This document shows, piece by piece, positions 1 through 16,176 of a stretch of DNA of 64,000 nt (position 1 is the stretch's first letter; each line of letters begins with the position of its first letter). This DNA comes from Candidatus Zambryskibacteria bacterium RIFCSPLOWO2_02_FULL_51_21. Lineage in GTDB: Bacteria; Patescibacteriota; Minisyncoccia; Phycocordibacterales; Zambryskibacteraceae. The notes beneath the pieces were generated by a model. The model saw nothing but the letters and a program-made list of their open reading frames with translations, was not told where the DNA came from and made no database searches. The translations under genes were made by a program, and so were the position numbers. The stretch is taken from the NCBI GenBank assembly GCA_001824255.1, contig MHWQ01000002.1, positions 393,572 through 457,571 on the forward strand. The letters are read 5' to 3'.

Positions 1-292
1 CGTAACAAGCCTGTACTCCAGGAAGATAAGACCCCAAATGCCATACAGACGGTATTCCAGCCATGTAATTCGAGTACTCAAAAGTGGAGTACGGCGAATA
101 GGTGATAAAACCAGACACAATCGCGGGCCCACCGAGGAAAAGGGGGGTAAACCACACCGCCAAATTGCCAGAGCAAGTGCACGGCACGCTAAAGGTGGAG
201 AGTCCTCCGAACGGCATTGTTACCGCTTTTGCGGAAGAAATCGGGAATAAAAGGAGGAGGAAGAACAAGAGAGACAAGGAAGCTGCTTTCAT
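1..292 (-). CDS. Partial CDS: secreted protein with N-terminal signal peptide (MKAASLSLLFFLLLLFPISSAKA...). C-terminus lies beyond the window start.
   Basis: Reverse-complement translation from ATG at 292..290 reads an open frame to the window edge. It has a hydrophobic signal-peptide-like N-terminus followed by a Cys-containing segment (VPCTCSGN). It is absent from the ORF track because no stop falls inside the window. Confidence 0.35.
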   Translation of the reverse strand, partial: MKAASLSLLFFLLLLFPISSAKAVTMPFGGLSTFSVPCTCSGNLAVWFTPLFLGGPAIVSGFITYSPYSTFEYSNYMAGIPSVWHLGSYLPGVQACY

Positions 293-337
293 ATTCCTAT
301 TATACACAATAAACCCCGTATTTATCTGATACAATTA

Positions 338-1114
338 ATGATTATGAGAGCTAAAATATTATCTGCTCTTTTTCTCTCCTTGATTATGATAGGGGCGGCA
401 TTTTGGTCCAGATTTTTCGACAACAAACCGGCCGCCGGTCTCGCCACTGTTTCAAGTCCAAGCATCACACCAATGAACGATGAGGCTTTTTTGAGTGCCA
501 ATTTCACCGACTCGAGCAGCACTCCGCTCTCGACTACGGATATGCTGTCCAGACAACTTTTTTCCGATTATGCCGACCTTAAGTCCAAAGGCGAAACTTC
601 TTCCGAAAATCTCAATTATCTGGCGGAAAGATATGCGGAAGGCATTATGAACATCAGACCGGCTGCCTCAAAGGTCACTGCCATCGAACAGCTTACGATT
701 ATTCCGGATTCGGCAGAAAACACTTTCAACTACGGCAAGAGTATGATTGCCGCCCGCAGCAAATATGCCGCCTTGGCCAAAGAGGAGAGCGAAGGCGCGG
801 GCGATCTGAATCAAGAAGGTTTCGGCGACTTCATCACGCGAGCCGGAAATTTATACCTCGCTTCGGCGAATGAGCTGTTGAAAATAAAAGTACCCGCATC
901 ACTCGCTAGAAATCACCTGGAGATTATCAATGACTATTTCCAAACCGCCGAAGCCATGAGAACCATCGCGGAATCTTCCGACGACCCGGTAAAAATTTAT
1001 GCCGCCATCCAGACGCAAATCCGGAATGCAAAAAAAGAAGATGAATTGTTCTTAAACATCCAAATCGCCATGTCAGCCGGTGGTATAATTTGGTCAGGCA
1101 ACCTGAATCAATGA
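338..1114 (+). CDS. Hypothetical membrane-anchored protein (N-terminal TM helix, helical extracytoplasmic domain). First gene of the coupled operon.
   Basis: 258-aa ORF with hydrophobic N-terminus ILSALFLSLIMIGAAFW. Its stop overlaps the next start (ATGA at 1111-1114). Confidence 0.5.
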   Translation: MIMRAKILSALFLSLIMIGAAFWSRFFDNKPAAGLATVSSPSITPMNDEAFLSANFTDSSSTPLSTTDMLSRQLFSDYADLKSKGETSSENLNYLAERYAEGIMNIRPAASKVTAIEQLTIIPDSAENTFNYGKSMIAARSKYAALAKEESEGAGDLNQEGFGDFITRAGNLYLASANELLKIKVPASLARNHLEIINDYFQTAEAMRTIAESSDDPVKIYAAIQTQIRNAKKEDELFLNIQIAMSAGGIIWSGNLNQ

Positions 1115-3669
1115 GTTATAAAAAATTTACAGTCCTTATTCTCGCCCTCTCGATATCTTTTCTATCTTTTGCTCCGGTAGTCCGGGCCCAAACCGCGGTA
1201 CCGGTAAGCGACAGCGCCATAAGACAGAAGGAGGTCGGCATTACCGTATTTGGCGTTACCGTTCCCGGCCTAAGTTGGGACTCCATCGCGCTAACGATAG
1301 CAAAATCTACGATTAGCAGGCTCGTAAATTCCACAGTCAAATGGATTAACAACGGCTTCGACGGCAACCCGGCCTACGTAAACAATCCCAAACAATATTT
1401 TACGGATATCGCCGATGGAGAAGCGGGGGAGTTTATCAGAGGAAGCGAGCTCGGCTTGCTCTGTTCGCCATTTCAGGCCAATATCCGGCTTTCTTTGATG
1501 CAGGAATATTACGAGCCCCTGCCTTATCAATGCACCTTGAGCGAAGTTACAAGTAATATTGAAGGATTCTTTGACGATTTCTCGCAAGGTGGCTGGGATG
1601 CATGGTTCTCGATGACGCAGAACCCGACCAATAATCCTTACGGAGCATATCTCAAGGCGAGAATTGACATGGATAGTCGCATCGCAAACGCAATCGGACT
1701 CAAAAATCAGCAATTAGATCGAGGCAGGGGCTTTCTCTCGTTTGAAAAATGCCCATCAGGTTCCTTCGAGGGTACCGATGAGGAGCTCAATAAAGGATGC
1801 TTCAAGACCGGCACTTGGGAAAAGGTGGATGCGACAGTGGTTACGCCGGGAAGCGTGATAGAAACCCAGCTTTCCACCGTATTGGGTACCGGCATAAGAC
1901 AGCTCGAGCTCGCGGACGAGTTCGATGAAATCGTGGGCGCTTTAGTAACCCAATTACTTCAAAAAGTTCTCGGCGGCGGCGGGCTGGCAAGCGGAGCAGG
2001 TACGGGTGATACAGAAAGACCCCCGGGTCAGGAAAGAAGGCCTGTGCCAGTTGATATTGATGGCGACGGCATCATTGACGGCACGGATACTGATGGGAAT
2101 GGGAGCCCTGATATATGTCTCTTCGGCGGTGAAAACGATACGATAGGCCCACCATGTTTAGGCTCGGGAGAATTTGGACCACCGGAAGGCGGTGGAGGAG
2201 GTGACACTTGCTCCGTGAGCGGCCAGCAATACGAAGGCGTGTTAAGGGACGCCGAAGCGCAGGTGGCAAGCGTCAATCCCGAAGTGGCGAGCTTGCTCAA
2301 TCTTGAAGACGCCAATGGCTACAAGGCCAATAGTAAAAGGTTCTTGGATGTGGTAGTGCAAATTCTCGAGGGCCAGGGCTACAATGCCACCACCGATGTT
2401 CTGAACGGACACAATAATCCAAATACGGGCGACGCCATCGCCATCTGGAGAGACGGCGATAGCAATATGGAGCGCTACGACGCCATGCTTGGAGGGAACG
2501 GCAAACCGGTGTCCCAATCGGCTATTGCCGAATTCACGGGCTTCGTGCCTCTGGGCTGCACCACTTCCGGCGGGAGCAAGGAGTGCGGCTGCGACAACGG
2601 TTTGAATAATCCAAGCCCGAGCCCGTCGCCTTCGCCATCTCCCACACCCGCGCCAGTGCCGGGCGGAGCAAGCATTTCTTCCGTCACGCCAAATGTCGCC
2701 CAAGCCGGAGTGACGACCATTACCATCACCGGCACGAATCTCACTAATCAAGTCTCCTTCTATGACGGTACTGGGGCACGCAATACTGTTGTCGGCACCG
2801 TCAACTCCGCCGGAACTCAAACCACGGTCCTTGTCCCGGGCGATTTGCCTATTGGCAATGCCACGGTCAAGATTTACCAAGGCAATCAAGTCTGGTCGAA
2901 CGGCATCTTGATACAAATCAGTAGCCAGGCGGCGCCGGTAACCACCATTCCCACGACGGGGAGTATTGACCTCGGAGCCGGGACCTTCCCGGATACCGCA
3001 TACTTCAACAACAGAATCTATGTCGCTGTCCAGCAGAATGACAAACTTAATCTCTATAACTTCGACAAGAATCTCTCTGACCAGAAAGTAACCGTGATTC
3101 CGTTCTCCGTTGGCCAGGCTTTCCCGCGGCTTATGGTCTGGAATAATATCCTGTGGCTTGCTTTCAGAAATGGCGATAACTCAAGTGGCATAGCGGAATC
3201 AATCAAACTCTGGAGAAGCGACACGCAGGCGATAGAGGAGATTGCCGGCGGCTATGGCAACGACCCGGTCGCTCTCGGCCAGGGTTACATCGCCTGGCAA
3301 ACATTTACAGAACTTAAAATCAAGAGGAGACCTGTTTCCGGCGGAACAATTACGACGCTTGGCAACGCGCTCCCTACCGGTCTCTCGAGAATCTTAGCTG
3401 GTGGAAGCGTCATTTCCATAGACCAGGATAGAAACGCGGTGACATGGGGTTTGCGAGCCTGGTTCGCCGGCGACCTCACAGTGGCCGAAGATATCACTCC
3501 CCATGATGATAATGGGGCGGTCGGAAGATTCAATAATGATTCTTCGACCGAATTCAATCTCTGGGCGGGCCAGAGAACGCATACGCCACACGCGGCAACT
3601 GATGGGCTAGGCAATTACGTAGTCGCGACCTGGGACCCGACGGTGAGGGTGGCCACATTCAAGAAATGA
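1111..3669 (+). CDS. Large secreted protein with signal peptide, Asp/Gly-rich calcium-binding-like repeats, a Pro/Ser linker and an IPT/TIG-like beta-sandwich segment. Putative surface or adhesin protein.
   Basis: MSYKKFTVLILALSISFLSFAPVVRA-QT signal peptide. DIDGDGIIDGTDTDGNGSPD repeat. PSPSPSPSPSPTPAPVP linker followed by ISSVTPNVAQAGVTTITITGTNLTN (IPT/TIG-like). Start chosen at the internal Met so that it overlaps the upstream stop (ATGA). Confidence 0.55.
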   Translation: MSYKKFTVLILALSISFLSFAPVVRAQTAVPVSDSAIRQKEVGITVFGVTVPGLSWDSIALTIAKSTISRLVNSTVKWINNGFDGNPAYVNNPKQYFTDIADGEAGEFIRGSELGLLCSPFQANIRLSLMQEYYEPLPYQCTLSEVTSNIEGFFDDFSQGGWDAWFSMTQNPTNNPYGAYLKARIDMDSRIANAIGLKNQQLDRGRGFLSFEKCPSGSFEGTDEELNKGCFKTGTWEKVDATVVTPGSVIETQLSTVLGTGIRQLELADEFDEIVGALVTQLLQKVLGGGGLASGAGTGDTERPPGQERRPVPVDIDGDGIIDGTDTDGNGSPDICLFGGENDTIGPPCLGSGEFGPPEGGGGGDTCSVSGQQYEGVLRDAEAQVASVNPEVASLLNLEDANGYKANSKRFLDVVVQILEGQGYNATTDVLNGHNNPNTGDAIAIWRDGDSNMERYDAMLGGNGKPVSQSAIAEFTGFVPLGCTTSGGSKECGCDNGLNNPSPSPSPSPSPTPAPVPGGASISSVTPNVAQAGVTTITITGTNLTNQVSFYDGTGARNTVVGTVNSAGTQTTVLVPGDLPIGNATVKIYQGNQVWSNGILIQISSQAAPVTTIPTTGSIDLGAGTFPDTAYFNNRIYVAVQQNDKLNLYNFDKNLSDQKVTVIPFSVGQAFPRLMVWNNILWLAFRNGDNSSGIAESIKLWRSDTQAIEEIAGGYGNDPVALGQGYIAWQTFTELKIKRRPVSGGTITTLGNALPTGLSRILAGGSVISIDQDRNAVTWGLRAWFAGDLTVAEDITPHDDNGAVGRFNNDSSTEFNLWAGQRTHTPHAATDGLGNYVVATWDPTVRVATFKK

Positions 3670-5786
3670 ATCCTTACTTCAAAAAATTAACAGTTTTCCT
3701 TCTTGTACTTAGCTTTGTGTTCGGAGTGAGTGGAATCGTATCTTCTAAAAAAGCTTCCGCTATTAATACGGTTGAGCAGTGCATGGCGGAAATGCTCGCC
3801 GCGGCCAAACAAGCTGGAAAGAATATGACGGAAGATGAGGCTAGGGCAAATTGTCAGAAACTAATCGATGACGCCGTAAAACAAGCAGGCGGAGGAGGAT
3901 CTTTGTTTGATCTTCTCCAGCCCGCGGAATGGGTTGCTAAGGCCGCCGGGGCACTGGCTTCCGGAATACTGCTGCCCTTGGCCGGCTGGCTTACCTGGTT
4001 TAGCGGCATGCTCCTCAACTATGTAATCAAATACACAGTCGTGGACATGAAAGCCAACCTGGACGTTGATGCAGTAAATAATATATGGAAAACAATTCGT
4101 GACCTTGGCAACATGGGGTTCATCTTCGTTCTTCTCTACGCCGCTATTCAAACCATATTGGGTATTGGTAAAAATACTAAAGATTTGATTGTGCGAGTAG
4201 TGGTAGTAGCGATTTTAATAAACTTCAGCTTATTCTTTACGAAATTTGTCATAGACATTGCTAATGTCTTGGCCATTACTCTATATGACGCGGCCGCGCA
4301 CGGGGCATTGGCTGATAATCTCAATAGCGGCCTGGCTAATAGTCTTATGGAGCCGTTGGGGCTCCAATCGATTTGGAACGCCCAAGGAAGCTTAACCGGT
4401 TACACACTTCTCATAGCAGGCGTCATGGGCACGGTTGTGTCTCTTATAGCGGCATTCGTCTTCTTCGCCATCTCCATACTCTTCGTCATCAGATTCGTGG
4501 TTCTCCTCTTCGTACTGGCGCTTTCGCCAATCGCGTTCCTATCATTTGTCCTGCCGGAACTCAAGAAGTACCGCGACCAATGGTGGGGAGCGCTCTCCGG
4601 ACAAGCATTCTTCGCTCCGATTTATTTCCTGCTTACCTGGATTGTCATAGCCATCGCAAGAGGCATCCTAATGCCGCTTAGACCCGGCAGTATGGCAGAC
4701 GTTATCGCGGCGCAAGCGGGAAAGAGTGTGCCTGACCCGAGTTCGGTGGGAATCTTCGTGAACTACGCGATGGTCATAACTCTGCTGATTGCCTCTCTCG
4801 TCATCGCCAAGGAATGGGCCAACAAAGCCGGCGGCGGCATCAACAAACTCACAGGGTGGGCAACTGGCTTCGCCGGGGGAGCGACACTGGGGGCCGCTGG
4901 CAGATTTGGGAGAGGCACTGTGGGTAGAGCAGGTAGTTTATTAACTGAAAACGAGTGGCTTAAAGAAAAGGCGCCGACAAGCAGGATGGCTCGCCTGGCA
5001 CTTGCTACGGGCAAGAAGACTGCTGGGGCAAGCTTCGACCTGCGTGGAACCGGTTTGAGTTCTCAACTGGATGCCGGTAAGGCACAGAAAGGTGGATTTG
5101 CCGCAGATCTTAAGAAAAAAGTTGATACTGAAAAGAAATATGCGGATGAAACCTTCAAGCCATCGGAGTTAATGGTTGCTCAAGCGGAACGAGACCTTGG
5201 CCAAGCCAAAAAGACTGGCACGCCAGCGGACATAGCGGCAGCACAAGCAAAACTGGACAAAATCAATGGAGCCAGCGAAGATACGCTCCGTCAAAGAAAG
5301 ATTAAAGAACTCCGCGCCACAGGAAAGAGTAAAAAGGAGGCAAGAATTCTAGTGGATGAGCAAGAAGATAAATATTTGCAGGAAGTTAACAGACTTACTA
5401 CCAGCGGTATGGGTCAAGAGGACGCCGAGAAAGATGCCCAGAGCAGGGGCTTCGTAACTTTCAAAGCAATCGAGGGTCTGACTAATACCAGAAAAGGAGC
5501 TTACGCCAAGACTGTCGAGGAACAGAAGGTAAAGATACCATTCACACAAAAAGCTATTCCATTTGCTATCACCGGCCGACTCGGAATGTTTGGCCCCGTG
5601 AAGAAAGAAAACAAACTGGCTGCAAATGCCATTAGAAAAAGTATGAAAGAAAAGAAGCCTGGAGAAAAAATTGCAGAGGAGATAGAGAAGCAAGCCAGAG
5701 AATCAAGTGATGAGTCTGGGGCAACGCCCACACCCCCCACCACACCAACAACTCCTCCACCAGCCGCAGGCCCAACAACACCATGA
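3666..5786 (+). CDS. Polytopic inner-membrane protein (at least 6 TM helices) with a long K/E-rich coiled-coil C-terminal tail ending in a Pro/Thr-rich segment. VirB6/TrbL-like putative T4SS channel component.
   Basis: Signal or anchor MNPYFKKLTVFLLVLSFVFGVSG. Multiple long hydrophobic stretches, e.g. LLIAGVMGTVVSLIAAFVFFAISILFVIRFVVLLFVLALSPIAFLSFVL. C-terminal TPTPPTTPTTPPPAAGPTTP. Translationally coupled (ATGA) to both neighbours. Confidence 0.45.
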   Translation: MNPYFKKLTVFLLVLSFVFGVSGIVSSKKASAINTVEQCMAEMLAAAKQAGKNMTEDEARANCQKLIDDAVKQAGGGGSLFDLLQPAEWVAKAAGALASGILLPLAGWLTWFSGMLLNYVIKYTVVDMKANLDVDAVNNIWKTIRDLGNMGFIFVLLYAAIQTILGIGKNTKDLIVRVVVVAILINFSLFFTKFVIDIANVLAITLYDAAAHGALADNLNSGLANSLMEPLGLQSIWNAQGSLTGYTLLIAGVMGTVVSLIAAFVFFAISILFVIRFVVLLFVLALSPIAFLSFVLPELKKYRDQWWGALSGQAFFAPIYFLLTWIVIAIARGILMPLRPGSMADVIAAQAGKSVPDPSSVGIFVNYAMVITLLIASLVIAKEWANKAGGGINKLTGWATGFAGGATLGAAGRFGRGTVGRAGSLLTENEWLKEKAPTSRMARLALATGKKTAGASFDLRGTGLSSQLDAGKAQKGGFAADLKKKVDTEKKYADETFKPSELMVAQAERDLGQAKKTGTPADIAAAQAKLDKINGASEDTLRQRKIKELRATGKSKKEARILVDEQEDKYLQEVNRLTTSGMGQEDAEKDAQSRGFVTFKAIEGLTNTRKGAYAKTVEEQKVKIPFTQKAIPFAITGRLGMFGPVKKENKLAANAIRKSMKEKKPGEKIAEEIEKQARESSDESGATPTPPTTPTTPPPAAGPTTP

Positions 5787-6319
5787 ACGAGCAAGATAAA
5801 TTAATTCAAGAACAGTTCCAAAAGCTCCCGCTAGCGCTGCAGAAGGCGCTCGGAGAGATTCCGTGGAAATCTTTAGTCAATGAAATTGCGCGGCTGCACA
5901 ATTTGAAGCCGGAACAGGTGGAGAGCATCGAGACAGAGACGATGTTTATCCTCTACGGCTTCGAGAGTCCGGACGATTACGTCTCCAATATGGTCCGCGA
6001 AACTGGTATTGCCGAAGATTTGGCGTATGTCATCGCAAACGAAGTAAACGAGAAAATTTTCAAGCCTGTTTCTGTGAAAGTTGAGGAGGCAGGCAAACAA
6101 CAACCAACCTCAACTTCCATTCCCGAACTCAAACCAGAGAATCTGCCGATGGTTGAGAAAGGGGAGATGGTACATGAGGTGCCACACGTAGAAGCACCAA
6201 ATCCCAAATCACAAATTCCAAACAATATCGAAATTCCAAAAGAAGAAAAACCTCCTATCCAACCAGCTAAAAGCGCTTATGTGGGCAGCCAGGACCCTTA
6301 TAGAGAACCACTATCATGA
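5783..6319 (+). CDS. Hypothetical acidic soluble protein inside the T4SS-like operon.
   Basis: 178-aa ORF with ATGA overlaps on both sides. No TM segment. Glu/Asp-rich. Confidence 0.45.
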   Translation: MNEQDKLIQEQFQKLPLALQKALGEIPWKSLVNEIARLHNLKPEQVESIETETMFILYGFESPDDYVSNMVRETGIAEDLAYVIANEVNEKIFKPVSVKVEEAGKQQPTSTSIPELKPENLPMVEKGEMVHEVPHVEAPNPKSQIPNNIEIPKEEKPPIQPAKSAYVGSQDPYREPLS

Positions 6320-6750
6320 GATTCCAAGTACCACAATTTATCGAGGTTGAGGATAAGATTTTCGGGCCTTTGACCTTCAAGCAGTTCGTCTATGTGGCGG
6401 GCGGGGGAGGCATCATCGTCATTTTCTTCGTCCTCCTGCCCAAGTTCATAGCCATCCTTCTCGCTTTACCGATAGCGGCCTTCGCCGGCGCGCTTGCCTT
6501 CTATAAAGTGAACGACAAGCCCTTCATCAATTTCGTCGAATCGTTCTTCAATTATTCGCTAAAGAGCAAGCTTTATATCTGGAAGAAGGAGGATAAGAAG
6601 CCCGAAGCGGGAACCGCCTCCGCTCCGGGCCAGATTGAGCAGGTTCACGTGCCGAAATTGTCCGAATCGAAGCTCCGCGAGCTTACTTGGTCACTTGATA
6701 TAAAGGAAAATAGGAATCCGGTCACGAACGAGCCGGAAAATAAGTTATAA
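6316..6750 (+). CDS. Small two-TM membrane protein, PrgI/VirB3-like, of the kind that usually precedes VirB4 in Gram-positive-type T4SS.
   Basis: 144 aa. Two hydrophobic helices (GGGGIIVIFFVLLPKFIAILLALPIAAFAGALAF). Located immediately upstream of the VirB4-family ATPase. ATGA overlap with the upstream gene. Confidence 0.45.
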   Translation: MRFQVPQFIEVEDKIFGPLTFKQFVYVAGGGGIIVIFFVLLPKFIAILLALPIAAFAGALAFYKVNDKPFINFVESFFNYSLKSKLYIWKKEDKKPEAGTASAPGQIEQVHVPKLSESKLRELTWSLDIKENRNPVTNEPENKL

Positions 6751-6757
6751 TTAGAGA

Positions 6758-7402
6758 ATGGCTGCCTCTTCCAATGCAACTCAGGAGTTCGTGCCCATCA
6801 AGGAGGTGCGCGACGGCATCGTCATTTTGAAGGATGGCGGCATGCGCGCCATACTCCTCTGTTCCTCGCTTAACTTCTCGCTCAAAAGCGATGACGAAAG
6901 GAACGCCATCCTCCTGCAGTTCCAGGACTTCCTCAATTCACTCGACTTCTCGGTGGAAATATTGGTCCAGTCGAGGAAGCTCGACATCAGGCCATACCTG
7001 GCTCTCCTTGAAGAGCAGGAAACGAAGCAGACCAATAACCTTTTGAAGATTCAGGTCAGGGAATACATCCAGTTCGTGAAGAAGTTTACCGAGGACGCAA
7101 ATATCATGACCAAGCACTTCTTCATCGTCATACCCTACAGCCCGGCAATCATTTCCGCGGGAAGAGCTGGCAGCTTCATCACCAAACTCGGCGTTGGTGC
7201 GAGCGGCAGCCAGAGCAAGACCTCGGGCAATGGCAGCTTCGACGAGAATAGAAGCCAGCTTGAGGAGCGGATGTCAGTGGTCGAACAGGGTTTGGTGCGC
7301 ACGGGCATACGTGTGGCGCGGCTTGGCACGGAGGAAGTAATCGAACTTTTCTACAAGGCCTTCAACCCCGGCGAGACCGAGAAGCCGATTAAAATGAAAT
7401 AA
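6758..7402 (+). CDS. VirB4/TrbE/CagE-family ATPase, N-terminal domain fragment (separate ORF from the ATPase body).
   Basis: FVPIKEVRDGIVILKDGGMRAILLCSSLNFSL...FLNSLDFSVEILVQSRKLDI resembles the conserved N-terminus of Gram-positive VirB4 homologues. Ends at TAA one nucleotide before the ATG of the next ORF, which is in a different frame. Confidence 0.55.
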   Translation: MAASSNATQEFVPIKEVRDGIVILKDGGMRAILLCSSLNFSLKSDDERNAILLQFQDFLNSLDFSVEILVQSRKLDIRPYLALLEEQETKQTNNLLKIQVREYIQFVKKFTEDANIMTKHFFIVIPYSPAIISAGRAGSFITKLGVGASGSQSKTSGNGSFDENRSQLEERMSVVEQGLVRTGIRVARLGTEEVIELFYKAFNPGETEKPIKMK

Positions 7403-7403
7403 C

Positions 7404-9296
7404 ATGGGAATTTTTGATTCACTTTTTAAAAAGGAGGCAAAGCGAGAAGATATTTCCTCAATTTTACCTAAGGAAATCTTCGAAGCGGGCGCCCTGGAGC
7501 TCAAAGACATCATCGCTCCCTCAGCTCTGAAGGTCTCGCCCAAGGAAATAAACTTGGGCGAGAAAATCCTGCGCAGCTTCTTCGTCATCTCCTATCCGCG
7601 CTATCTCGCCGAGGGCTGGTTCTCGCCCATTATCAATATGGACAAGGTTTTCGACGTCTCGATCTTCGTCCACCCGATTGAAACCTCGAAAGTACTTCGC
7701 CAGTTCCAGAGGAAGGTGGCCGAAGTGCAGTCCCAGATTCACACCAGGGAAGAAAAGGGCCTGGTGCGCGACCCCATGCTCGATGTGGCCTATCAGGACC
7801 TCGAGAACTTGCGCGACCAGCTCCAGCAGGCGCAGGAGAAGCTTTTCGATGTCGGGCTATATATCACCATCTACGGCGACAGCGCCGACGAACTCGACAA
7901 GGTTGAGAGCGAGATTAAGTCAATACTTGAGGCCAAACTCATTTATGTGAAGCCGGCCCTCTTCCAGCAGGAAGAGGGCTACAAATCAACCCTGCCTTTA
8001 GGCAATGACGAACTGAACGTCCACTCCAAACTCAATTCTTCCCCGCTCTCCTCGCTGTTTCCATTCACCTCCTTCGACCTTACTTCGGACAAAGGCATTC
8101 TCTACGGCATAAACAGGCACAACTCTTCGCTTATTCTCTTCGACCGCTTCTCGCTTGAGAACTACAACTCGGTCACCTTCGCCAAGGCGGGCGCCGGCAA
8201 GTCCTACGCCACCAAGCTTGAGATTCTCCGCACGCTCATGTTTGATACTGAGGTTATCGTCATCGACCCGGAGAAAGAGTACGAGTACATGGCCGAGGCG
8301 ACAGGCGGGCGCTACTTCAACATTTCCCTCAATTCCGAACACCACATCAATCCCTTCGACCTGCCCGTGCCGGGACCGGACGAGAGCGCCGCAAACGTCT
8401 TGCGCTCCACCATCATCAACCTGGTGGGCCTCTTCCGCCTCATGATGGGCGGCCTCACCGCCGAGGAAGACGCCATCATCGACCGCGCCATTACCGAAAC
8501 GTATGCGCTCAAAGACATTACTGCCGATTCCGACTTTAGAAACATCGAGCCACCCTTGATGTCTGACTTCGAGCTGGTGCTCTCCGGCATGGAAGGAGGA
8601 GAATCTCTGGCCCAGCGTCTGTCCAAGTACACCAAGGGCACTTGGGCGGGCTTCATCAACAGGCCTTCAAATGTGGATATCAACAGAAAGTTCGTGGTCT
8701 TCTCGCTCCGCGACATGGAAGATGAGCTTAAGCCCATAGCCATGTACATCGTCACGCACTATATCTGGAACACCATCAGAAAAGAGCTTAAGAAGCGCCT
8801 GCTCGTAATCGACGAGGCCTGGTGGATGATGAAGTCCGACGACACCGCCTCTTTCCTCATGGGTCTCGTCAAGAGAGGTAGGAAATATTACCTGGGTGTT
8901 GCCACTGTTACTCAAGATGTAGGCGACTTCCTCAAATCGCCTTACGGCGTGCCTATCATCACCAACTCCTCAATCCAGATGCTTTTGAAGCAGTCACCAG
9001 CAACGATTGACGAACTGCAAAAAACTTTCAATCTTACCGACGAGGAGAAATATCTTCTTTTGGAATCAGATGTTGGAGAAGGAATCTTCTTCGCCGGACT
9101 CAAACATGTGGCTATAAAGAATATTGCTTCGTACACAGAGCATCAAATTATCACCTCCGACCCAGGTCAGATCCTGGCCATAAAGAAGGCAAAGCAAGAC
9201 GCGGCCGAAGACCAGGATGAAGCGCTCATGGCCCAGCGGGAGAAACTGAAGCAGGCCGCCTTAAATCCAAATGCCGGAGAAAAAGGGACTCAGTAG
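7404..9296 (+). CDS. VirB4/TrbE/CagE-family T4SS ATPase (central and C-terminal ATPase domains).
   Basis: Walker A FAKAGAGKSYATK. VIVIDPEKEYEYMAEATGGRYFNISL. Walker B-like LLVIDEAWWMM. Overall VirB4 domain order. Confidence 0.8.
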   Translation: MGIFDSLFKKEAKREDISSILPKEIFEAGALELKDIIAPSALKVSPKEINLGEKILRSFFVISYPRYLAEGWFSPIINMDKVFDVSIFVHPIETSKVLRQFQRKVAEVQSQIHTREEKGLVRDPMLDVAYQDLENLRDQLQQAQEKLFDVGLYITIYGDSADELDKVESEIKSILEAKLIYVKPALFQQEEGYKSTLPLGNDELNVHSKLNSSPLSSLFPFTSFDLTSDKGILYGINRHNSSLILFDRFSLENYNSVTFAKAGAGKSYATKLEILRTLMFDTEVIVIDPEKEYEYMAEATGGRYFNISLNSEHHINPFDLPVPGPDESAANVLRSTIINLVGLFRLMMGGLTAEEDAIIDRAITETYALKDITADSDFRNIEPPLMSDFELVLSGMEGGESLAQRLSKYTKGTWAGFINRPSNVDINRKFVVFSLRDMEDELKPIAMYIVTHYIWNTIRKELKKRLLVIDEAWWMMKSDDTASFLMGLVKRGRKYYLGVATVTQDVGDFLKSPYGVPIITNSSIQMLLKQSPATIDELQKTFNLTDEEKYLLLESDVGEGIFFAGLKHVAIKNIASYTEHQIITSDPGQILAIKKAKQDAAEDQDEALMAQREKLKQAALNPNAGEKGTQ

Positions 9297-9597
9297 TGCA
9301 ACAATCGGTTTGATGACAGGCGTTGCCTTGTTTTATGACGTGCTTCAAATACTTTTTTCCTGGATGGGGCTCGGGTGGTTCATTATTCCCATTGCGTACG
9401 GCCATTTCTGGCTCTGGTTCAGAATGCGGGGATTGAAGTTTTTTACAACAAAGAGAGCCGTCTGGTTCGGCTTCGGCGTTCCGCTTGAAGCACTTACTGC
9501 CGGCATTTTCCCCAGTATAACCGGCAATGTCTTGCGGTCCGCGATGGATTATAAAATCGAGAAGACTCTCCCGACATCGGGTATAATAAAATCATGA
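9271..9597 (+). CDS. Small hydrophobic membrane protein in the T4SS-like operon.
   Basis: 108 aa with 2-3 hydrophobic helices rich in W/F (GLGWFIIPIAYGHFWLWF). Overlaps the VirB4 stop. Confidence 0.4.
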   Translation: MPEKKGLSSATIGLMTGVALFYDVLQILFSWMGLGWFIIPIAYGHFWLWFRMRGLKFFTTKRAVWFGFGVPLEALTAGIFPSITGNVLRSAMDYKIEKTLPTSGIIKS

Positions 9598-10265
9598 GAA
9601 AACTAGTCTTTCTGTTTTTTATCTACTTATTCTTTTCCACCCCAGCCCTTGCCCAGTCTGTTGATATTCTCTGGCAGGGAACGGGCTACATTCCGCCGTT
9701 TTACGAGGGCAAAATGCTTTGGGCCAAGCAGTCAGTCATTACTCTCGTGGCTATTCCGCAAGGATTGGGTAACCCCGCAAACCTTAATTACAAATGGACT
9801 CGTAACGGCACCGTGCTGGGCAACGTCTCCGGCATTGGCAAAAACTCTCTAACCTTCATGGACGCCGTTTTCTCCAAACCCTACACGATAAAGGTTGAGA
9901 TTGTTGACGGGAATGAAGAGACGCGCGCGGAAGCGACACAGGTCATCGCGGCAAGAGACCCCCTGCTACTGGTCTATGAGAATCACCCCTTGTACGGATA
10001 TCTTTTCAATAAAGAGATTGGGGGTGTCTTCAAAATGAACAAGGAGGAGGCCACCTTCACCGCCTTCCCCTTATTCGCACAGCAAAGAGCGGGGGCTTAT
10101 TCCTGGCGGGCCAATAGCGGAGAGCCTTCCGGCGGCAACACTGTCACTTACCGCGCGCCGGAAGGGGCGAGCGGCGTCTCCAGGGTAAACGTAAGTTTCT
10201 CTGATGGCAACGCGATAATGAGGCCTATCGAGCGCAGTTTCTTGATACAATTTGGCAATGAATAA
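9594..10265 (+). CDS. Secreted protein with cleavable signal peptide. Function unknown.
   Basis: MRKLVFLFFIYLFFSTPALA-QS signal peptide. Overlaps neighbours at both ends. Confidence 0.5.
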   Translation: MRKLVFLFFIYLFFSTPALAQSVDILWQGTGYIPPFYEGKMLWAKQSVITLVAIPQGLGNPANLNYKWTRNGTVLGNVSGIGKNSLTFMDAVFSKPYTIKVEIVDGNEETRAEATQVIAARDPLLLVYENHPLYGYLFNKEIGGVFKMNKEEATFTAFPLFAQQRAGAYSWRANSGEPSGGNTVTYRAPEGASGVSRVNVSFSDGNAIMRPIERSFLIQFGNE

Positions 10266-11139
10266 ACTTATTATTTCTATCTTTTTTCTGGCGCTTGCAG
10301 TTCCCGTCCTTGCCCAGGAAGCCAAGCCGACCGACTACACCATGCTTGCTCCCATACCCCAGCTTGCCACGGAGGGAGAGAAGACAAATGCCGTAACGTA
10401 CGTGACGGGTCTCTTCAAGCTCGCCATAGGTCTCGCCGGAGCGCTCGCGGTGGTGATGATTATCTACGCAGGCATCAAATATATGTCCACGGACGCTTTC
10501 AGCGGCAAGGAGGAGGCCAAAGGCGTCATCGAGAACGCCCTCTGGGGCTTGGGGCTGGCAATAGCCGCCTGGCTCATCCTCTATACCATCAACCCGAAGC
10601 TGGTGGAAATAAAATTCGACATAGCACCGCAGCAAATCGCCACGACCACAACAACGCTTGGTGGGGATCTGCCGGGAGGGGGTTGGGGGGGCGGAGGGGG
10701 AATTCTTCCTGGATATCCGCTTAGCCCAGAACAAGTGGCTGAGAACACGCAAATTAGGGATAAACTTAAAAACAACAAACCCTATCCTGTCTTGGTAAAT
10801 AATGACCCTTGCGCGACAGGAGGGACAATCGGGTGCACAAATGTTGTCGGTCTGCCGGACTCAGCCCTCACTAGTGCTAAAATCCTGGCTAATGCGTGCA
10901 AATGCACAATAACAATCACCGGAGGAACGGAGGGCGGTCATTCCAACCATGGACCAGGGAGGGCAGCTTTCGATCTTTCGCCCATTGGAGCTCTGAATAC
11001 TTTTCTCAGTAAAACTAACCCCCAAGCAGCCTTCCCTAGCAATGGTGCAAAAGTAAGAATCGGAACAACCGTTTACACTTTTGAAACCGCGGGAGCGAAT
11101 GGCAGAGCCACCGCTAACCATTGGCATGTAGAGCTTTGA
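10252..11139 (+). CDS. T4SS pilin-like protein (signal peptide plus two hydrophobic helices, as in CPR and Firmicutes conjugative pilins) with a Gly-rich linker and a roughly 170-aa C-terminal extension domain.
   Basis: MAMNKLIISIFFLALAVPVLA-QEA signal peptide. KLAIGLAGALAVVMIIYAGIKYMST...AKGVIENALWGLGLAIAAWLILYTINPKL matches the pilin-like pattern. GGDLPGGGWGGGGGILPG linker. Confidence 0.5.
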   Translation: MAMNKLIISIFFLALAVPVLAQEAKPTDYTMLAPIPQLATEGEKTNAVTYVTGLFKLAIGLAGALAVVMIIYAGIKYMSTDAFSGKEEAKGVIENALWGLGLAIAAWLILYTINPKLVEIKFDIAPQQIATTTTTLGGDLPGGGWGGGGGILPGYPLSPEQVAENTQIRDKLKNNKPYPVLVNNDPCATGGTIGCTNVVGLPDSALTSAKILANACKCTITITGGTEGGHSNHGPGRAAFDLSPIGALNTFLSKTNPQAAFPSNGAKVRIGTTVYTFETAGANGRATANHWHVEL

Positions 11140-11140
11140 T

Positions 11141-12364
11141 ATGAAAAAAACACTTCTAATCTCCGGCGCGGTCATAGCAATACTGCTTCTTGCCTTCTTT
11201 GCGTGGTTTTTTCTCGGCAGAGACAAGACTGTGCCGGCAGGAGAGGCGGTGATGAATCTTCTGCCATTCGGTTCTGGTGAAAATTTAGGTGAATCAGGAA
11301 TCACGAATCAAGAATCAGGAATAGGAATAACAGTTGGGGAAGAAAAAATTTTTGATGAACAGGGCGTGCCTACATCCAACCTTTTCCGCCTATCCGATGC
11401 ATCAGTGGCCGGTATGATTGCTTTCGCTCGTGGCGGACAGACTGTCGTGCGTTTTGTGGAGAGAGCCACCGGCCATATTTACGAAACCGCGCTGCCTAAA
11501 GATAAGGCCCTGGCGCCGTTGGAAAAAAAGAAAATCTCCATCAACACCCTGCCGAAGGTTTACGAGGCCTACTTCCGCCCGGACGGCAATATGGTGCTCC
11601 TACGGATGCTTGAGGACGGCTCTGATGCGCAAAAGAACCTCGTTTTGAACCTTGCGGCCACCACAAGCACTGCCGTGAATGTGCGCGGGGTGCTCGGCAG
11701 TATCGCGGTGGGGCAGGGAAATACTCTTTTCTATACCGAACTGGGGTCGAAAACGGTTGTCTCCTCTCCCTTCGGCGGTACCGTAAAAACTTTATACTCC
11801 TTTCCTTTTACCGACTGGCGAGTTTCCCCGGCCGGCACCGGCCTTCTCCTGGAGGCTAAACCGAGCGCCGAGGCCCCCGGTTTCGCTTATATTCTAAGCG
11901 CTGCCGGCTCGTTAACCAGAATTCTTGGATCTCTTTCCGGTCTTTCCGCAGTCTCCAATGCCGCGGGGACTTCCGTGCTTTATTCATACAATAACGGCAG
12001 TGAGATAAAACTTTTTGCCAGGAATCTCCGCACCGGCGCGGAAGTCGAAATTTCTCCGGCAACACTCGCCGAGAAATGCGTCTGGTCTGCAAAAGAATCC
12101 TCCAAGGTCTTTTGCGGAGCGCCCAATTCCTCCCCTTCGGCAGATGAGCCCGATGGTTGGTATGCCGGGGCAACACACTTTTCTGACTATATCTGGACTT
12201 CAGATTCTATTACTGAGATTTCAAAACTTCTGGCAAGTCCATTGGATGAATTCGGTATAGACATAGACGTTTACAAACCAATGCTTTCTCCAGCCGAAGA
12301 TTATCTTCTCTTCATCAACAAGCGCGATATGTCCTTGTGGGTTCTTAAACTGCCCGGGGCTTAA
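11141..12364 (+). CDS. Membrane-anchored extracytoplasmic protein, probably beta-rich or propeller-like. Last gene of the operon.
   Basis: N-terminal TM KKTLLISGAVIAILLLAFFAWFFLG. 407 aa. Converges on yidC. Confidence 0.5.
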   Translation: MKKTLLISGAVIAILLLAFFAWFFLGRDKTVPAGEAVMNLLPFGSGENLGESGITNQESGIGITVGEEKIFDEQGVPTSNLFRLSDASVAGMIAFARGGQTVVRFVERATGHIYETALPKDKALAPLEKKKISINTLPKVYEAYFRPDGNMVLLRMLEDGSDAQKNLVLNLAATTSTAVNVRGVLGSIAVGQGNTLFYTELGSKTVVSSPFGGTVKTLYSFPFTDWRVSPAGTGLLLEAKPSAEAPGFAYILSAAGSLTRILGSLSGLSAVSNAAGTSVLYSYNNGSEIKLFARNLRTGAEVEISPATLAEKCVWSAKESSKVFCGAPNSSPSADEPDGWYAGATHFSDYIWTSDSITEISKLLASPLDEFGIDIDVYKPMLSPAEDYLLFINKRDMSLWVLKLPGA

Positions 12365-13061
12365 CCTTTCTCCTAACAAAAAGTTCCTGCCCGATGCTGA
12401 AGAGGTTGGTGGTTAGGAAATACAGACCGATTACTCCGGAAACTTGATAAGAAATAAAAAACATAATGGCTGGAAAAACATATTTCATCTGTTTTTGCAT
12501 GCTTTTCGCCAAATTATCTCCGAAAGAATTCCCCTGGGGTTCCTTCTGGCCTTTGGTAGATACGACAAATTGCAAATAAGTCGAGACGGCTGCCAGAAAC
12601 GCAAGGATAATGCTTTTACCACTTATGTCTATGAGCCCCAGAAAAACAGTGTTAATGCTTAGCGGCGCGGAAACAAAAGAATACAGGAGCGACGCGTTAA
12701 TTGCCGGCAATTTGATGAAAATCTGGTAAAGCGCGAGAATTATTGGAATCTGGATGATTAGAACTAGAATGCCTGAAAAGGGATTAACCCCTTTTTCTTT
12801 ATAGAGAGAGAGGGTGCGGCGAGCCTGTTCCTCCGAATTATCCTTGTACTTCTCTTTAATGGCGGCAAGTTCCGGCGCAATCTCGGCCATTCTCACTTGC
12901 GTCAAAACCGCCTTGCGGGAAAGAGGAAAGAGTACCATGCGCACCAGCACGGTGAGAATCACCACGACAACCCCTGCATCAGCCCAGGGTAGAATCTTGA
13001 AAAGAACTATGAGCGAGTTATAAAGCGGGTCGAAGAAAAAAGCGTGGTAAAGAAAAGACAT
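12345..13061 (-). CDS. yidC: YidC/Oxa1-family membrane protein insertase (short Gram-positive/CPR form).
   Basis: VLFPLSRKAVLTQVRMAEIAPELAAIKEKYKDN...YKEKGVNPFSGILVLIIQIPIILALY is the characteristic YidC core. Conserved rpmH-rnpA-yidC synteny. Confidence 0.85.
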   Translation of the reverse strand: MSFLYHAFFFDPLYNSLIVLFKILPWADAGVVVVILTVLVRMVLFPLSRKAVLTQVRMAEIAPELAAIKEKYKDNSEEQARRTLSLYKEKGVNPFSGILVLIIQIPIILALYQIFIKLPAINASLLYSFVSAPLSINTVFLGLIDISGKSIILAFLAAVSTYLQFVVSTKGQKEPQGNSFGDNLAKSMQKQMKYVFPAIMFFISYQVSGVIGLYFLTTNLFSIGQELFVRRKVKPRAV

Positions 13062-13291
13062 TATATTATTCTAATCAATTCTTCTTCCAATGTCTTGCCT
13101 TTTAATTTTTCAGCGCCCGGCTTTGCTATCAGCAGATACTTTGCTGGTTTTAAAGAAATATTTTTGAGAATCGGGCGGATACGCCGTCTGACGGTATTCC
13201 TTACCACAGCGCTCTTGGAAACTTTTTTGGAGACAGAAATAATTACTTCAACCTTTTCACCGGGCGAAACGCGTAAAGAGAAAAAAGACAT
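13061..13291 (-). CDS. rnpA: Ribonuclease P protein component.
   Basis: Basic 76-aa protein (VRNTVRRRIRPILK). ATG at 13291 overlaps the rpmH stop (ATGA). Canonical position between rpmH and yidC. Confidence 0.8.
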   Translation of the reverse strand: MSFFSLRVSPGEKVEVIISVSKKVSKSAVVRNTVRRRIRPILKNISLKPAKYLLIAKPGAEKLKGKTLEEELIRII

Positions 13292-13425
13292 CAAAGAGCC
13301 AAGCGCGCCCGTCCCTTGCGGCGCCTGTTCCTTATAGTGCGTTTACCGGTGGATGTTTTCTTCCTGGAAAGAAAGCCGTGGGTGCGAGCTCGCTTGCGTT
13401 TCTTCGGGTTGTATGTTCTGGACAT
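13291..13425 (-). CDS. rpmH: 50S ribosomal protein L34.
   Basis: Manual translation of the reverse complement gives [44 protein letters not shown] (44 aa). It is absent from the ORF track because it is under 60 aa. Confidence 0.85.
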
Positions 13426-13522
13426 ATTTTCTTAACAGCTTATTAACATATTATAAACATTTTTTGAGCCGTTAACAAGCTTTCCTGAATATCTAAAAAG
13501 ATATACTGTACACACAAATTTC
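13426..13522. promoter_or_regulatory. rpmH-dnaA divergent intergenic region. AT-rich. Candidate dnaA promoter with a possible degenerate DnaA box.
   Basis: 97 bp between divergent rpmH and dnaA. TTATAAACA (13451-13459) resembles TTATCCACA with 2 mismatches. Confidence 0.3.
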
Positions 13523-15069: not shown

Positions 15070-16176
15070 ATGAAAATAGAAGCTATTAAAGAACAACTTG
15101 AAGGAGCACTCAGTAAGGCTGATAAAATTGCCGGTAAAAATCAAAGTCTCCCTGTTTTGTCCGGGTTTTATATGGATGCCCGGGATAATCTCCTTACTAT
15201 CAAGGCCACTAATCTTGATTTAGGTATTTCCGTAAGTTTGCCGGTGAAGGTTCTTGAGCCGGGTATAGTGGTGGTGCCAGCCCATATTCTCTCCTCCTTC
15301 ATATCTTCACTTTCTTACGATAAAAACACATCTCTTCAGACTAAAGGCCAGGTTTTAGATATCAAAACTAAAACGACAAAAACAAGCATAAAAACGCTCC
15401 CAAGCGAGGAATTTCCGATTATTCCGGAAATAGGCACCGATGGCGTTTTCTCTCTGCCGGCTCGTGATCTGATATTCGGTTTGAGGTCGGTTATTTATGC
15501 TGCCGCGGTTGGCAGTGTTAAGCCAGAACTCTCATCGGTGCTGATTAAACACGAAGGGGAGTTTCTGATTTTTGCCGCCACCGATTCCTTCCGCCTTGCC
15601 GAGAAAAAAATAAAAGTGAAGAAAGTTCCTCACTTCAAACAAATTCTTATCCCGCAGAAAAACGCGTTGGAAATTATCAAAATATTCGACCAAGGGGATG
15701 AGGATATTTCGATTTCGATAGAAGAGCATCAAATGGCGCTGCGTTCCGGCGGAGTTTATGTCACCTCGCGCATTATCGAGGGCAACTTTCCGGACTATCG
15801 GCAGATTATTCCGAAAGAAGTAAACACCACCGCGACGGTCTTGAAGCAGGATTTAATCAATTCACTCAAAACCAGCCTGATTTTCTCAGACTCCTTCAAC
15901 CAGCTTTCCTTAAGACTCGCGCCTAAGGAAAAGAAGTTTGAAATGGAATCAAAAAATTCCTCAATTGGCGAAAGCACTCAAAACATCCAGGTGGCAGCTA
16001 TGGAGGGTAAGGATATTTTCATCAGCGTAAATCATCGCTATTTCACCGACTGCTTCCAGTCCCTAATAACGGACAGCCTCTCCCTCTCTTTCTCCGGAGA
16101 GCAGAAGCCGATTGTCGTTAAGGGTGTCGGTGACCAGAGCTTCCTCTATCTCGTGATGCCTATGAACCAATCATGA
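15070..16176 (+). CDS. dnaN: DNA polymerase III beta sliding clamp.
   Basis: 368 aa, three-domain clamp length. N-terminal MKIEAIKEQLEGALSKADKIAGK pattern. Located immediately after dnaA. Confidence 0.9.
   Translation: MKIEAIKEQLEGALSKADKIAGKNQSLPVLSGFYMDARDNLLTIKATNLDLGISVSLPVKVLEPGIVVVPAHILSSFISSLSYDKNTSLQTKGQVLDIKTKTTKTSIKTLPSEEFPIIPEIGTDGVFSLPARDLIFGLRSVIYAAAVGSVKPELSSVLIKHEGEFLIFAATDSFRLAEKKIKVKKVPHFKQILIPQKNALEIIKIFDQGDEDISISIEEHQMALRSGGVYVTSRIIEGNFPDYRQIIPKEVNTTATVLKQDLINSLKTSLIFSDSFNQLSLRLAPKEKKFEMESKNSSIGESTQNIQVAAMEGKDIFISVNHRYFTDCFQSLITDSLSLSFSGEQKPIVVKGVGDQSFLYLVMPMNQS

Follow-up and report, generated by a model that had tools for sequence, protein, structure and literature searches.

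A TrsD-like protein and a VirB4 ATPase body encoded by adjacent genes in a dnaA-proximal type IV secretion operon of a Candidatus Zambryskibacteria bacterium

The window analysed here is a stretch of 64,000 nucleotides (nt) from the genome of Candidatus Zambryskibacteria bacterium RIFCSPLOWO2_02_FULL_51_21 (contig MHWQ01000002.1, positions 393,572 to 457,571 of the forward strand). In the window, two adjacent open reading frames (ORFs) of a type IV secretion system (T4SS) operon, ORF1 and ORF2, together cover a VirB4-family ATPase (Table 1). ORF2 is read in the +1 frame relative to ORF1. The junction lies in A-rich surroundings (AAAATGAAATAA), and one TGA is located in the ORF2 frame at 7395-7397; therefore, the two frames have essentially no open overlap. 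The spacing is equally tight elsewhere in the operon, where adjacent genes share 4-26 nt or are separated by 1-7 nt, and the distance of one nucleotide between the ORF1 stop and the ORF2 start makes translational coupling of the two genes likely. A promoter and terminator scan of positions 1-13500 gave counts not above those of shuffled sequence, with none at the junction. A preliminary description of the window had given the same coordinates and geometry, with TAA one base before ATG and the second ORF in another frame; on re-reading, these matched exactly, and the two peptides that it quoted, FVPIKEVRDGIVILKDGG and FSVEILVQSRKLDI, were both located in ORF1.

Table 1. Coordinates of the two VirB4 genes, their motifs, the neighbouring genes, and the junction inserts of related loci (locus identifiers precede the positions of the latter)
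Feature	Position	Strand	Remarks
ORF1	6758-7402	+	214 aa; TAA stop at 7400-7402
ORF2	7404-9296	+	630 aa; ATG at 7404
Junction AAA TAA C ATG	7397-7406	+	ORF1 stop, 1-nt spacer (C, 7403), ORF2 start
ORF2 N-terminal leader, 27 residues (MGIFDSLFKKEAKRED...)	7404-7484	+	ORF2 residues 1-27
Walker A AKAGAGKS	8181-8204	+	Motif in ORF2
Walker B RLLVIDEAW	8796-8822	+	Motif in ORF2
859-aa protein	1090-3669		Operon gene
706-aa polytopic membrane protein, Pro/Thr-rich C-terminal tail	3666-5786	+	Seven hydrophobic segments
178-aa protein	5783-6319		Operon gene
PrgI-family (VirB3-like) small membrane protein	6316-6750	+	PF12666, E 1e-12, 48.8 bits vs cut-off 27
223-aa protein	9594-10265		Operon gene
295-aa protein, N-terminal T4SS pilin-like domain	10252-11139	+	PF18895 T4SS_pilin, E 1.6e-7
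407-aa protein	11141-12364		Operon gene
yidC	12345-13061	-	Pfam 60KD_IMP
dnaA	13523-14869	+	Pfam Bac_DnaA
dnaN	15070-16176	+	Pfam DNA_pol3_beta
Spacer inserts, long	L026:4643-5094, L039:4640-5061, L060:4637-5101, L067:4616-5075, L074:4315-4757, L062:4619-5142		Related loci
Spacer inserts, shorter	L041:1614-1729, L073:4625-4727, L015:4646-4731, L045:4637-4709		Related loci

Judged by its sequence matches, ORF2 is a VirB4 body of the MPF-FATA-type CD1110 family, which contains the second half of the N-terminal region and the P-loop ATPase domain. It scores 374.2 bits (E 1.3e-111) against the NCBIfam model NF045971 ('VirB4-like conjugal transfer ATPase, CD1110 family'), whose curated cut-off is 325 bits. 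The match spans positions 183-736 of the 752-position model; ORF2 begins at about position 183, and positions ~1-180 are not on its polypeptide. Three Pfam domains were identified in ORF2, P-loop_TraG, AAA_10 and DUF87 (PF19044, PF12846 and PF01935), and both Walker motifs, which the preliminary description had placed in the second ORF, are intact there. In sequence searches of the PDB, ORF2 matched 4AG5, the Thermoanaerobacter VirB4 (E 2e-39), and TrwK of R388 (E 3e-8), with ORF2 residues 115-551 aligned to TrwK 290-735. The N-terminal leader of ORF2 follows the motif M-[GS]-[ILF]-F-D-x-L, then a K-rich stretch, which is conserved in 79 species with split genes (window included).

ORF1 is a TrsD-like protein whose counterpart in VirB4 is the initial ~215 residues of the N-terminal region. 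In NF045971 it aligns with positions 2-119 (E 1.5e-5); since the ORF1 and ORF2 matches to this one model are collinear and do not overlap, the two ORFs together cover one full VirB4 of the monoderm type. The claim of the preliminary description that a VirB4-family ATPase is divided between two adjacent ORFs is borne out by this collinear coverage. ORF1 also matches positions 100-233 of the mycoplasma VirB4 model of NCBIfam (E 2e-11) and, through residues 8-125, positions 15-142 of the 201-position model NF041427, 'TrsD/TraD family' (25.7 bits, E 8.9e-6). The latter score is far below the curated cut-off of 200 bits; ORF1 is a remote homologue, outside this narrow subfamily model. Neither ORF1 nor the N-terminus of P0230, a 797-aa orthologue from a Patescibacteria metagenome-assembled genome (MAG) in which both parts are fused, had any match in the Pfam-A copy used, in which PF26593 was never listed. 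In precomputed annotation, PF26593 ('TraC-like') is assigned to 120/120 of the closest ORF1 homologues (up to 98% identical) and also to the N-terminus of fused VirB4 proteins.

A sequence-only search of the PDB with ORF1 gave no match. The AlphaFold2 model of ORF1 has a mean predicted local distance difference test (pLDDT) score of 75, with one disordered loop at residues 132-156. When this model was compared with the PDB using Foldseek, the top 14 matches were all TrwK/VirB4 chains of R388 (E 5e-4 to 8e-3, template modelling (TM) scores of 0.42-0.48), and the next-best fold had an E-value of ~0.1. No hydrophobic segment was found in ORF1 or ORF2, the maximum hydropathy of ORF1 being 1.28. 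ORF1 is a soluble alpha/beta domain that makes up about the first half of the pre-ATPase region. The preliminary description had suggested that an N-terminal membrane-interaction domain is expressed separately; an N-terminal part is indeed separate, but it is not the whole domain and has no membrane segment. Because the secondary-structure order of ORF1 resembles that of the first ~200 residues of ORF2, internal duplication was also considered; it was not supported, as hhalign of the family profiles gave a probability of 0.4% over 8 columns.

Homologues of ORF1 are abundant, with at least 7,961 in a protein collection clustered at 90%. The best 120 are all stand-alone proteins of 210-225 aa, which share 75-98% identity with ORF1 and are spread over many independent assemblies of Patescibacteria/Parcubacteria. 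When representatives at 50% identity were searched exhaustively, 2,478 ORF1 clusters were obtained; stand-alone proteins of ~195-260 aa account for nearly all of the best 150. Some homologues reach 300-440 aa solely through P/Q/T-rich disordered C-terminal tails. Six of them (P0159, P0167, P0182, P0185, P0198 and P0229) are 380-440 aa in length, with Pro/Gln/Thr/Ala-rich and apparently disordered C-terminal tails of 150-230 residues. Such long C-terminal tails on stand-alone TrsD-like proteins indicate that the domain need not be continuous with the ATPase.

The locus was fetched from 80 species-representative genomes, mostly of Zambryskibacteria and Paceibacteria; the nearest relatives are all Patescibacteria MAGs, the closest being Zambryskibacteria. 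Both genes are present at 78 of the 80 loci, the remaining two being cut by a contig end, and in 78/78 two-gene loci the split is at the identical homologous point. The edges of the break are conserved, ORF1 ending with EKPIK-x-x-stop and ORF2 starting with M-[G/S]-[I/L/F]-F-D. The ORF1 stop codon varies among the relatives and can be TAA, TAG or TGA. Over the 79 species formed by the 78 relatives and the window, six genomes have spacers of 421-523 nt, and in the others the length is -4, -1, 1, 2, 3, 4, 5, 6, 9 and so on up to 115 nt. Spacers of at most 5 nt were found in 56 species, of 6-50 nt in 13 and of more than 50 nt in 10. Relative frames of 0, +1 and +2 were all found, and six spacers contain a whole inserted gene. 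With the break point invariant and the spacer, stop codon and frame variable, neither a sequencing indel nor a recent pseudogene nor a conserved programmed frameshift can account for the split.

Selection was measured on the window genes against ten relatives. Synonymous sites are saturated, with proportions of synonymous differences (pS) of 0.70-0.95, and the corresponding nonsynonymous proportions (pN) are 0.13-0.17 for ORF1 and 0.07-0.085 for ORF2. By these sequence comparisons, both genes are under purifying selection. The split is old and is maintained by selection.

Ten of the 79 spacers consist of a discrete insert with long imperfect inverted repeats on either side (Table 1); the window itself has no such insert. 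Five inserts carry one ORF of the 23S_rRNA_IVP four-helix-bundle family (PF05635; 3/5 scanned, E 1e-26 to 2e-38); in another the ORF belongs to PDDEXK_3 (PF13366, E 5e-19), and the other four are hairpins without any ORF. Hairpin elements that resemble intervening sequences seem to have landed repeatedly at the trsD|virB4 junction.

Single-chain relatives of the pair also exist. More than 100 proteins of ~780-805 aa (P0230, P0271-P0389; L085:3453-5852) have the TrsD-like domain (PF26593) fused to the VirB4 body, and several proteins of this fused type are annotated by NCBI as Candidatus Colwellbacteria. ORF1 residues 1-209 aligned to residues 1-214 of P0230 with 39% identity (E 2e-49), and ORF2 residues 28-598 aligned to residues 225-796 with 56% identity; the break between ORF1 and ORF2 therefore maps to the ~10-residue linker of the fused orthologue. 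The ORF2 leader is outside this alignment and has no counterpart in the fused proteins. The AlphaFold2 model of the fused orthologue (pLDDT 71) aligned over 800-870 columns to full-length TrwK/VirB4 (E 9e-27, TM-score 0.63). At one fused-type locus, L085, the gene order is PrgI, VirB4, ... yidC, rnpA, rpmH, dnaA and dnaN; owing to this shared dnaA-proximal context, we consider the fused and split forms of VirB4 to be orthologous. Like the single-chain VirB4 proteins (TrwK of R388, the CD1110-family proteins of CTn2-like integrative and conjugative elements, and the ~790-aa Colwellbacteria proteins), ORF1 and ORF2 together have the same domains in the same order. Different from them, the window encodes two polypeptides, the second with an extra 27-residue leader, and the break comes after about residue 215, within the N-terminal region of VirB4 instead of at the boundary of the N- and C-terminal domains. 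One 600-aa 'short' VirB4 in the fused clade, P0289, was examined as a recurrent fission and rejected as an artefact of gene calling (L084:1282-1700), because a run of N, a scaffold gap, has taken out the central part of its N-terminal domain; before a short VirB4 call in a MAG is taken for a split form, it should be verified.

A neighbour-joining tree of the TrsD-like domain was built from 212 columns with capped distances, using the domains of pSK41, Pontibacillus and Haladaptatus, all split, as outgroups. The fused domains are nested among the stand-alone ones, with 16 nesting splits in the full data and three or more in 161 of 200 bootstrap replicates. However, the method is crude, and the outgroups formed a single clade in just 90 of the 200 replicates. 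The tree hints that the Colwellbacteria-type fusion may be secondary.

A two-gene VirB4 is already known, from the pGO1/pSK41 subclass of monoderm T4SSs and specifically from Patescibacteria. The gene order in pSK41 is trsC (VirB3-like), trsD (227 aa, 'TrsD/TraD family conjugative transfer protein') and trsE (672 aa, DUF87 ATPase). Like the window, pSK41 and pGO1 encode one VirB3-like protein, one soluble protein of ~220 aa (TrsD) and then one VirB4-like ATPase of ~630-670 aa (TrsE). ORF2 residues 8-572 aligned to TrsE 5-616 (E 6e-33), which indicates that the two ATPase bodies share a homologous start, and the N-terminus of pSK41 TrsE, MIMAFLKKKKQE, resembles the ORF2 leader. TraD and TraE of pIP501 can be likened to the window pair through the 'TrsD/TraD family' name of NF041427. 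By tblastn of plasmids, the same two-gene layout was found in Bacillota plasmids, including one of Pontibacillus (order: pilin-like gene, 779-aa, 116-aa, 274-aa ORF1 homologue and 621-aa CD1110-family VirB4), and in haloarchaeal plasmids. Different from the pSK41-type systems, which belong to conjugative plasmids with a relaxase and a coupling protein, the window system is chromosomal and beside dnaA: yidC, dnaA and dnaN are directly downstream of the operon, which places the T4SS close to the origin. No relaxase domain was found among the neighbouring ORFs in a Pfam scan covering part of the window.

Among Patescibacteria, a survey by Quinonero-Coronel et al. (2025, PMC12102498) counted 2,272 TrsD homologues, of which 1,664 are associated with virB4; TrsD homologues beside virB4 are the commonest T4SS component in this group, and their homology to the VirB4 N-terminus is remote. 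The T4SS clusters are often near dnaA and dnaN, and the TrsD homologue of Southlakia epibionticum is listed as essential (PMC12102498). The window shares with these systems the TrsD homologue by virB4, the PrgI/VirB3 protein, the VirB6-like protein, the VirB2-like pilin and the position near dnaA/dnaN, and nothing essential differs. Different from the plasmid TrsD/TrsE systems, that of Patescibacteria is believed to have been recruited to serve an epibiotic lifestyle. VirB3-VirB4 fusion proteins occur in some conjugative systems (PMC12102498). Like the split in the window, these fusions show gene boundaries around the VirB4 N-terminus to be evolutionarily plastic, although they are fusions, the opposite of fission, and PrgI/VirB3 is a separate gene in the window. 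When the text of PMC12102498 was searched for 'fused' and 'fusion', VirB3-VirB4 fusions alone were returned and no TrsD-VirB4 fusion.

Taken together, the explanation that we favour, and hold to be very probable, is that ORF1 and ORF2 are both genuine genes, translated separately, in one chromosomal, dnaA-proximal T4SS operon, ORF1 being the TrsD/TraD counterpart and ORF2 the rest of VirB4. A VirB4 protomer would be reconstituted from the two products by non-covalent association. In the structure of the R388 system, the protomers of a VirB4 dimer are connected through their N-terminal domains, which also touch VirB3 and VirB8 (PMC12857230). By analogy, the TrsD-like subunit would present the face through which VirB4 protomers are joined and VirB3, here the PrgI-like protein encoded immediately upstream, is contacted, and ORF2 is predicted to supply ATP hydrolysis. 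Translation coupled across the 1-nt spacing would probably provide the ORF1 and ORF2 proteins in similar amounts.

Several points weigh against this explanation. The TrsD/TraD score of ORF1 is so far under its cut-off that the homology to TrsD proper is remote, and the comparison of the ORF1 family profile with pSK41 TrsD is weak (E 3e-4, hhalign probability 39%), though collinear over 167 columns. The AlphaFold2 models of ORF1 and of the fused orthologue are both of moderate confidence. Binding of ORF1 to ORF2 and to PrgI is a prediction. Moreover, the rate of evolution is about two times higher in the ORF1 family than in ORF2, some members of the family have disordered tails of 100-230 aa, and the TrsD homologues of Gracilibacteria are reported not to be beside virB4 (PMC12102498); each of these three observations could mean some functional independence of ORF1 from the ATPase.

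The last three observations lead to the alternative that ORF1, although descended from the VirB4 N-terminus, is now an independent accessory or adaptor subunit and more than the detached domain of one protomer; it might be present in another ratio to ORF2, take part in regulation or assembly, or have tails specific to some lineages. To this alternative we give a modest chance. The faster evolution of ORF1 and the 300-440-aa homologues with long tails would agree with it, as would the tolerance of junction inserts of 70-520 nt, which would uncouple translation. However, the domain is able to work within one polypeptide, as is shown by fused orthologues from the same dnaA-proximal locus, the model of the fused orthologue superposes on full-length TrwK, and the prevalence of junctions of 5 nt or less is consistent with co-expression. 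Far less probable is the proposal that ORF1 is unrelated to VirB4 and belongs to another family upstream of a naturally short VirB4. ORF1 has no Pfam-A or PDB sequence match, and its NCBIfam matches are all well under the curated cut-offs, as this proposal would have it; yet three independent VirB4/TrsD models match the same region of ORF1 collinearly, PF26593 is assigned to homologues both stand-alone and at the N-terminus of fused VirB4, and the fold search returned TrwK/VirB4 only. The preliminary description had named alignment to a different family as a possible outcome for the 214-aa protein, and what it does match are VirB4/TrsD models, the TrwK/VirB4 fold and the N-terminus of the fused orthologue, to which it is 39% identical.

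The preliminary description had left three options for the split, namely a frameshift or pseudogene, a sequencing error, and a genuine two-subunit arrangement, and had proposed a comparison with related genomes. No continuous ORF was found in that comparison: all the two-gene relatives are split at the same point, which favours the last option, and the comparative data rule out the other two. The chance that an assembly or sequencing indel, or a recent pseudogenising frameshift, has broken one ~800-aa virB4 is accordingly next to nil. The A-rich junction, the fused ~790-aa orthologues of a related lineage and P0289, which was indeed an assembly artefact, would all fit such an origin, but it would have to produce the same break in 78 independent species genomes with differing stops, spacers and frames. 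It also does not account for more than 100 near-full-length stand-alone ORF1 homologues from many independent assemblies, for the purifying selection on both ORFs, or for the ORF2 leader, which is conserved and missing from fused proteins. Programmed +1 frameshifting or stop read-through at AAA-TAA-C, yielding a fused VirB4 besides or instead of the two proteins, is also highly improbable. The +1 frame of ORF2, the distance of 1 nt and the C after the stop, loosely like a prfB-type shift site, would suit it; however, the TGA in the ORF2 frame leaves a single codon for the shift, re-pairing of tRNA-Lys from AAA to AAU is unfavourable, and neither the site nor the frame relation is conserved across the 79 species, six of which have spacers with an inserted gene.

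Returning to two genuine genes, the ORF2 leader may, as a speculation, be a docking peptide for the TrsD-like subunit, replacing the covalent link. A wider proposal joins three parts: the split is functional and not neutral, the M-G-I-F-D-x-L leader is the docking peptide, and the Colwellbacteria-type fused genes are secondary re-fusions. As a whole it is doubtful, and we give it a small chance of being right. If it were true, the cell could set the amount or the partners (PrgI/VirB3, VirB8-like) of the free subunit independently of the ATPase, and nature would have provided a split-versus-fused experiment on VirB4 dimer and hexamer building in an essential, non-conjugative T4SS.

We recommend annotating the 214-aa ORF as a TrsD-like VirB4 N-terminal-domain protein instead of a hypothetical protein, and not flagging the ORF1/ORF2 pair as a frameshifted pseudogene. 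The window is one more instance of a very common layout that is expected in Patescibacteria. The Patescibacteria T4SS is interesting on two counts: Southlakia cannot grow epibiotically without it, and it is not obviously conjugative. Comparison of fused and split orthologues could help to design experiments on TrsD function.

The PrgI-family gene is directly upstream of ORF1, and its product has two hydrophobic segments. The 706-aa membrane protein had no Pfam or NCBIfam match; it is inferred to be VirB6-like by position and topology alone, and the gene at the same position in the fused-type locus L085 gave a weak TrbL_3 match. After ORF2, the same co-directional operon encodes small membrane and secreted proteins. 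The 295-aa pilin-like protein also matched the Mbov_0395 pilin-like family (E 2e-4), under the cut-off of that family. Its C-terminal ~155 residues (10666-11139) hold GGHSNHGPGRAAFD ... ANHWHVE. By eye, this stretch, with its H..H..D / HWH pattern, has the look of a zinc peptidase signature (H-x-x-x-D / H-x-H), an unverified impression that was set aside, as there was no Pfam match at E up to 1. The 859-, 178-, 223- and 407-aa proteins gave no significant Pfam or NCBIfam match. Sub-threshold Ig-like matches were observed for two of them, TIG for the 859-aa protein (E 0.015) and Big_9 for the 223-aa protein (E 0.026), and all four proteins are candidates for surface or cell-wall parts of the T4SS.

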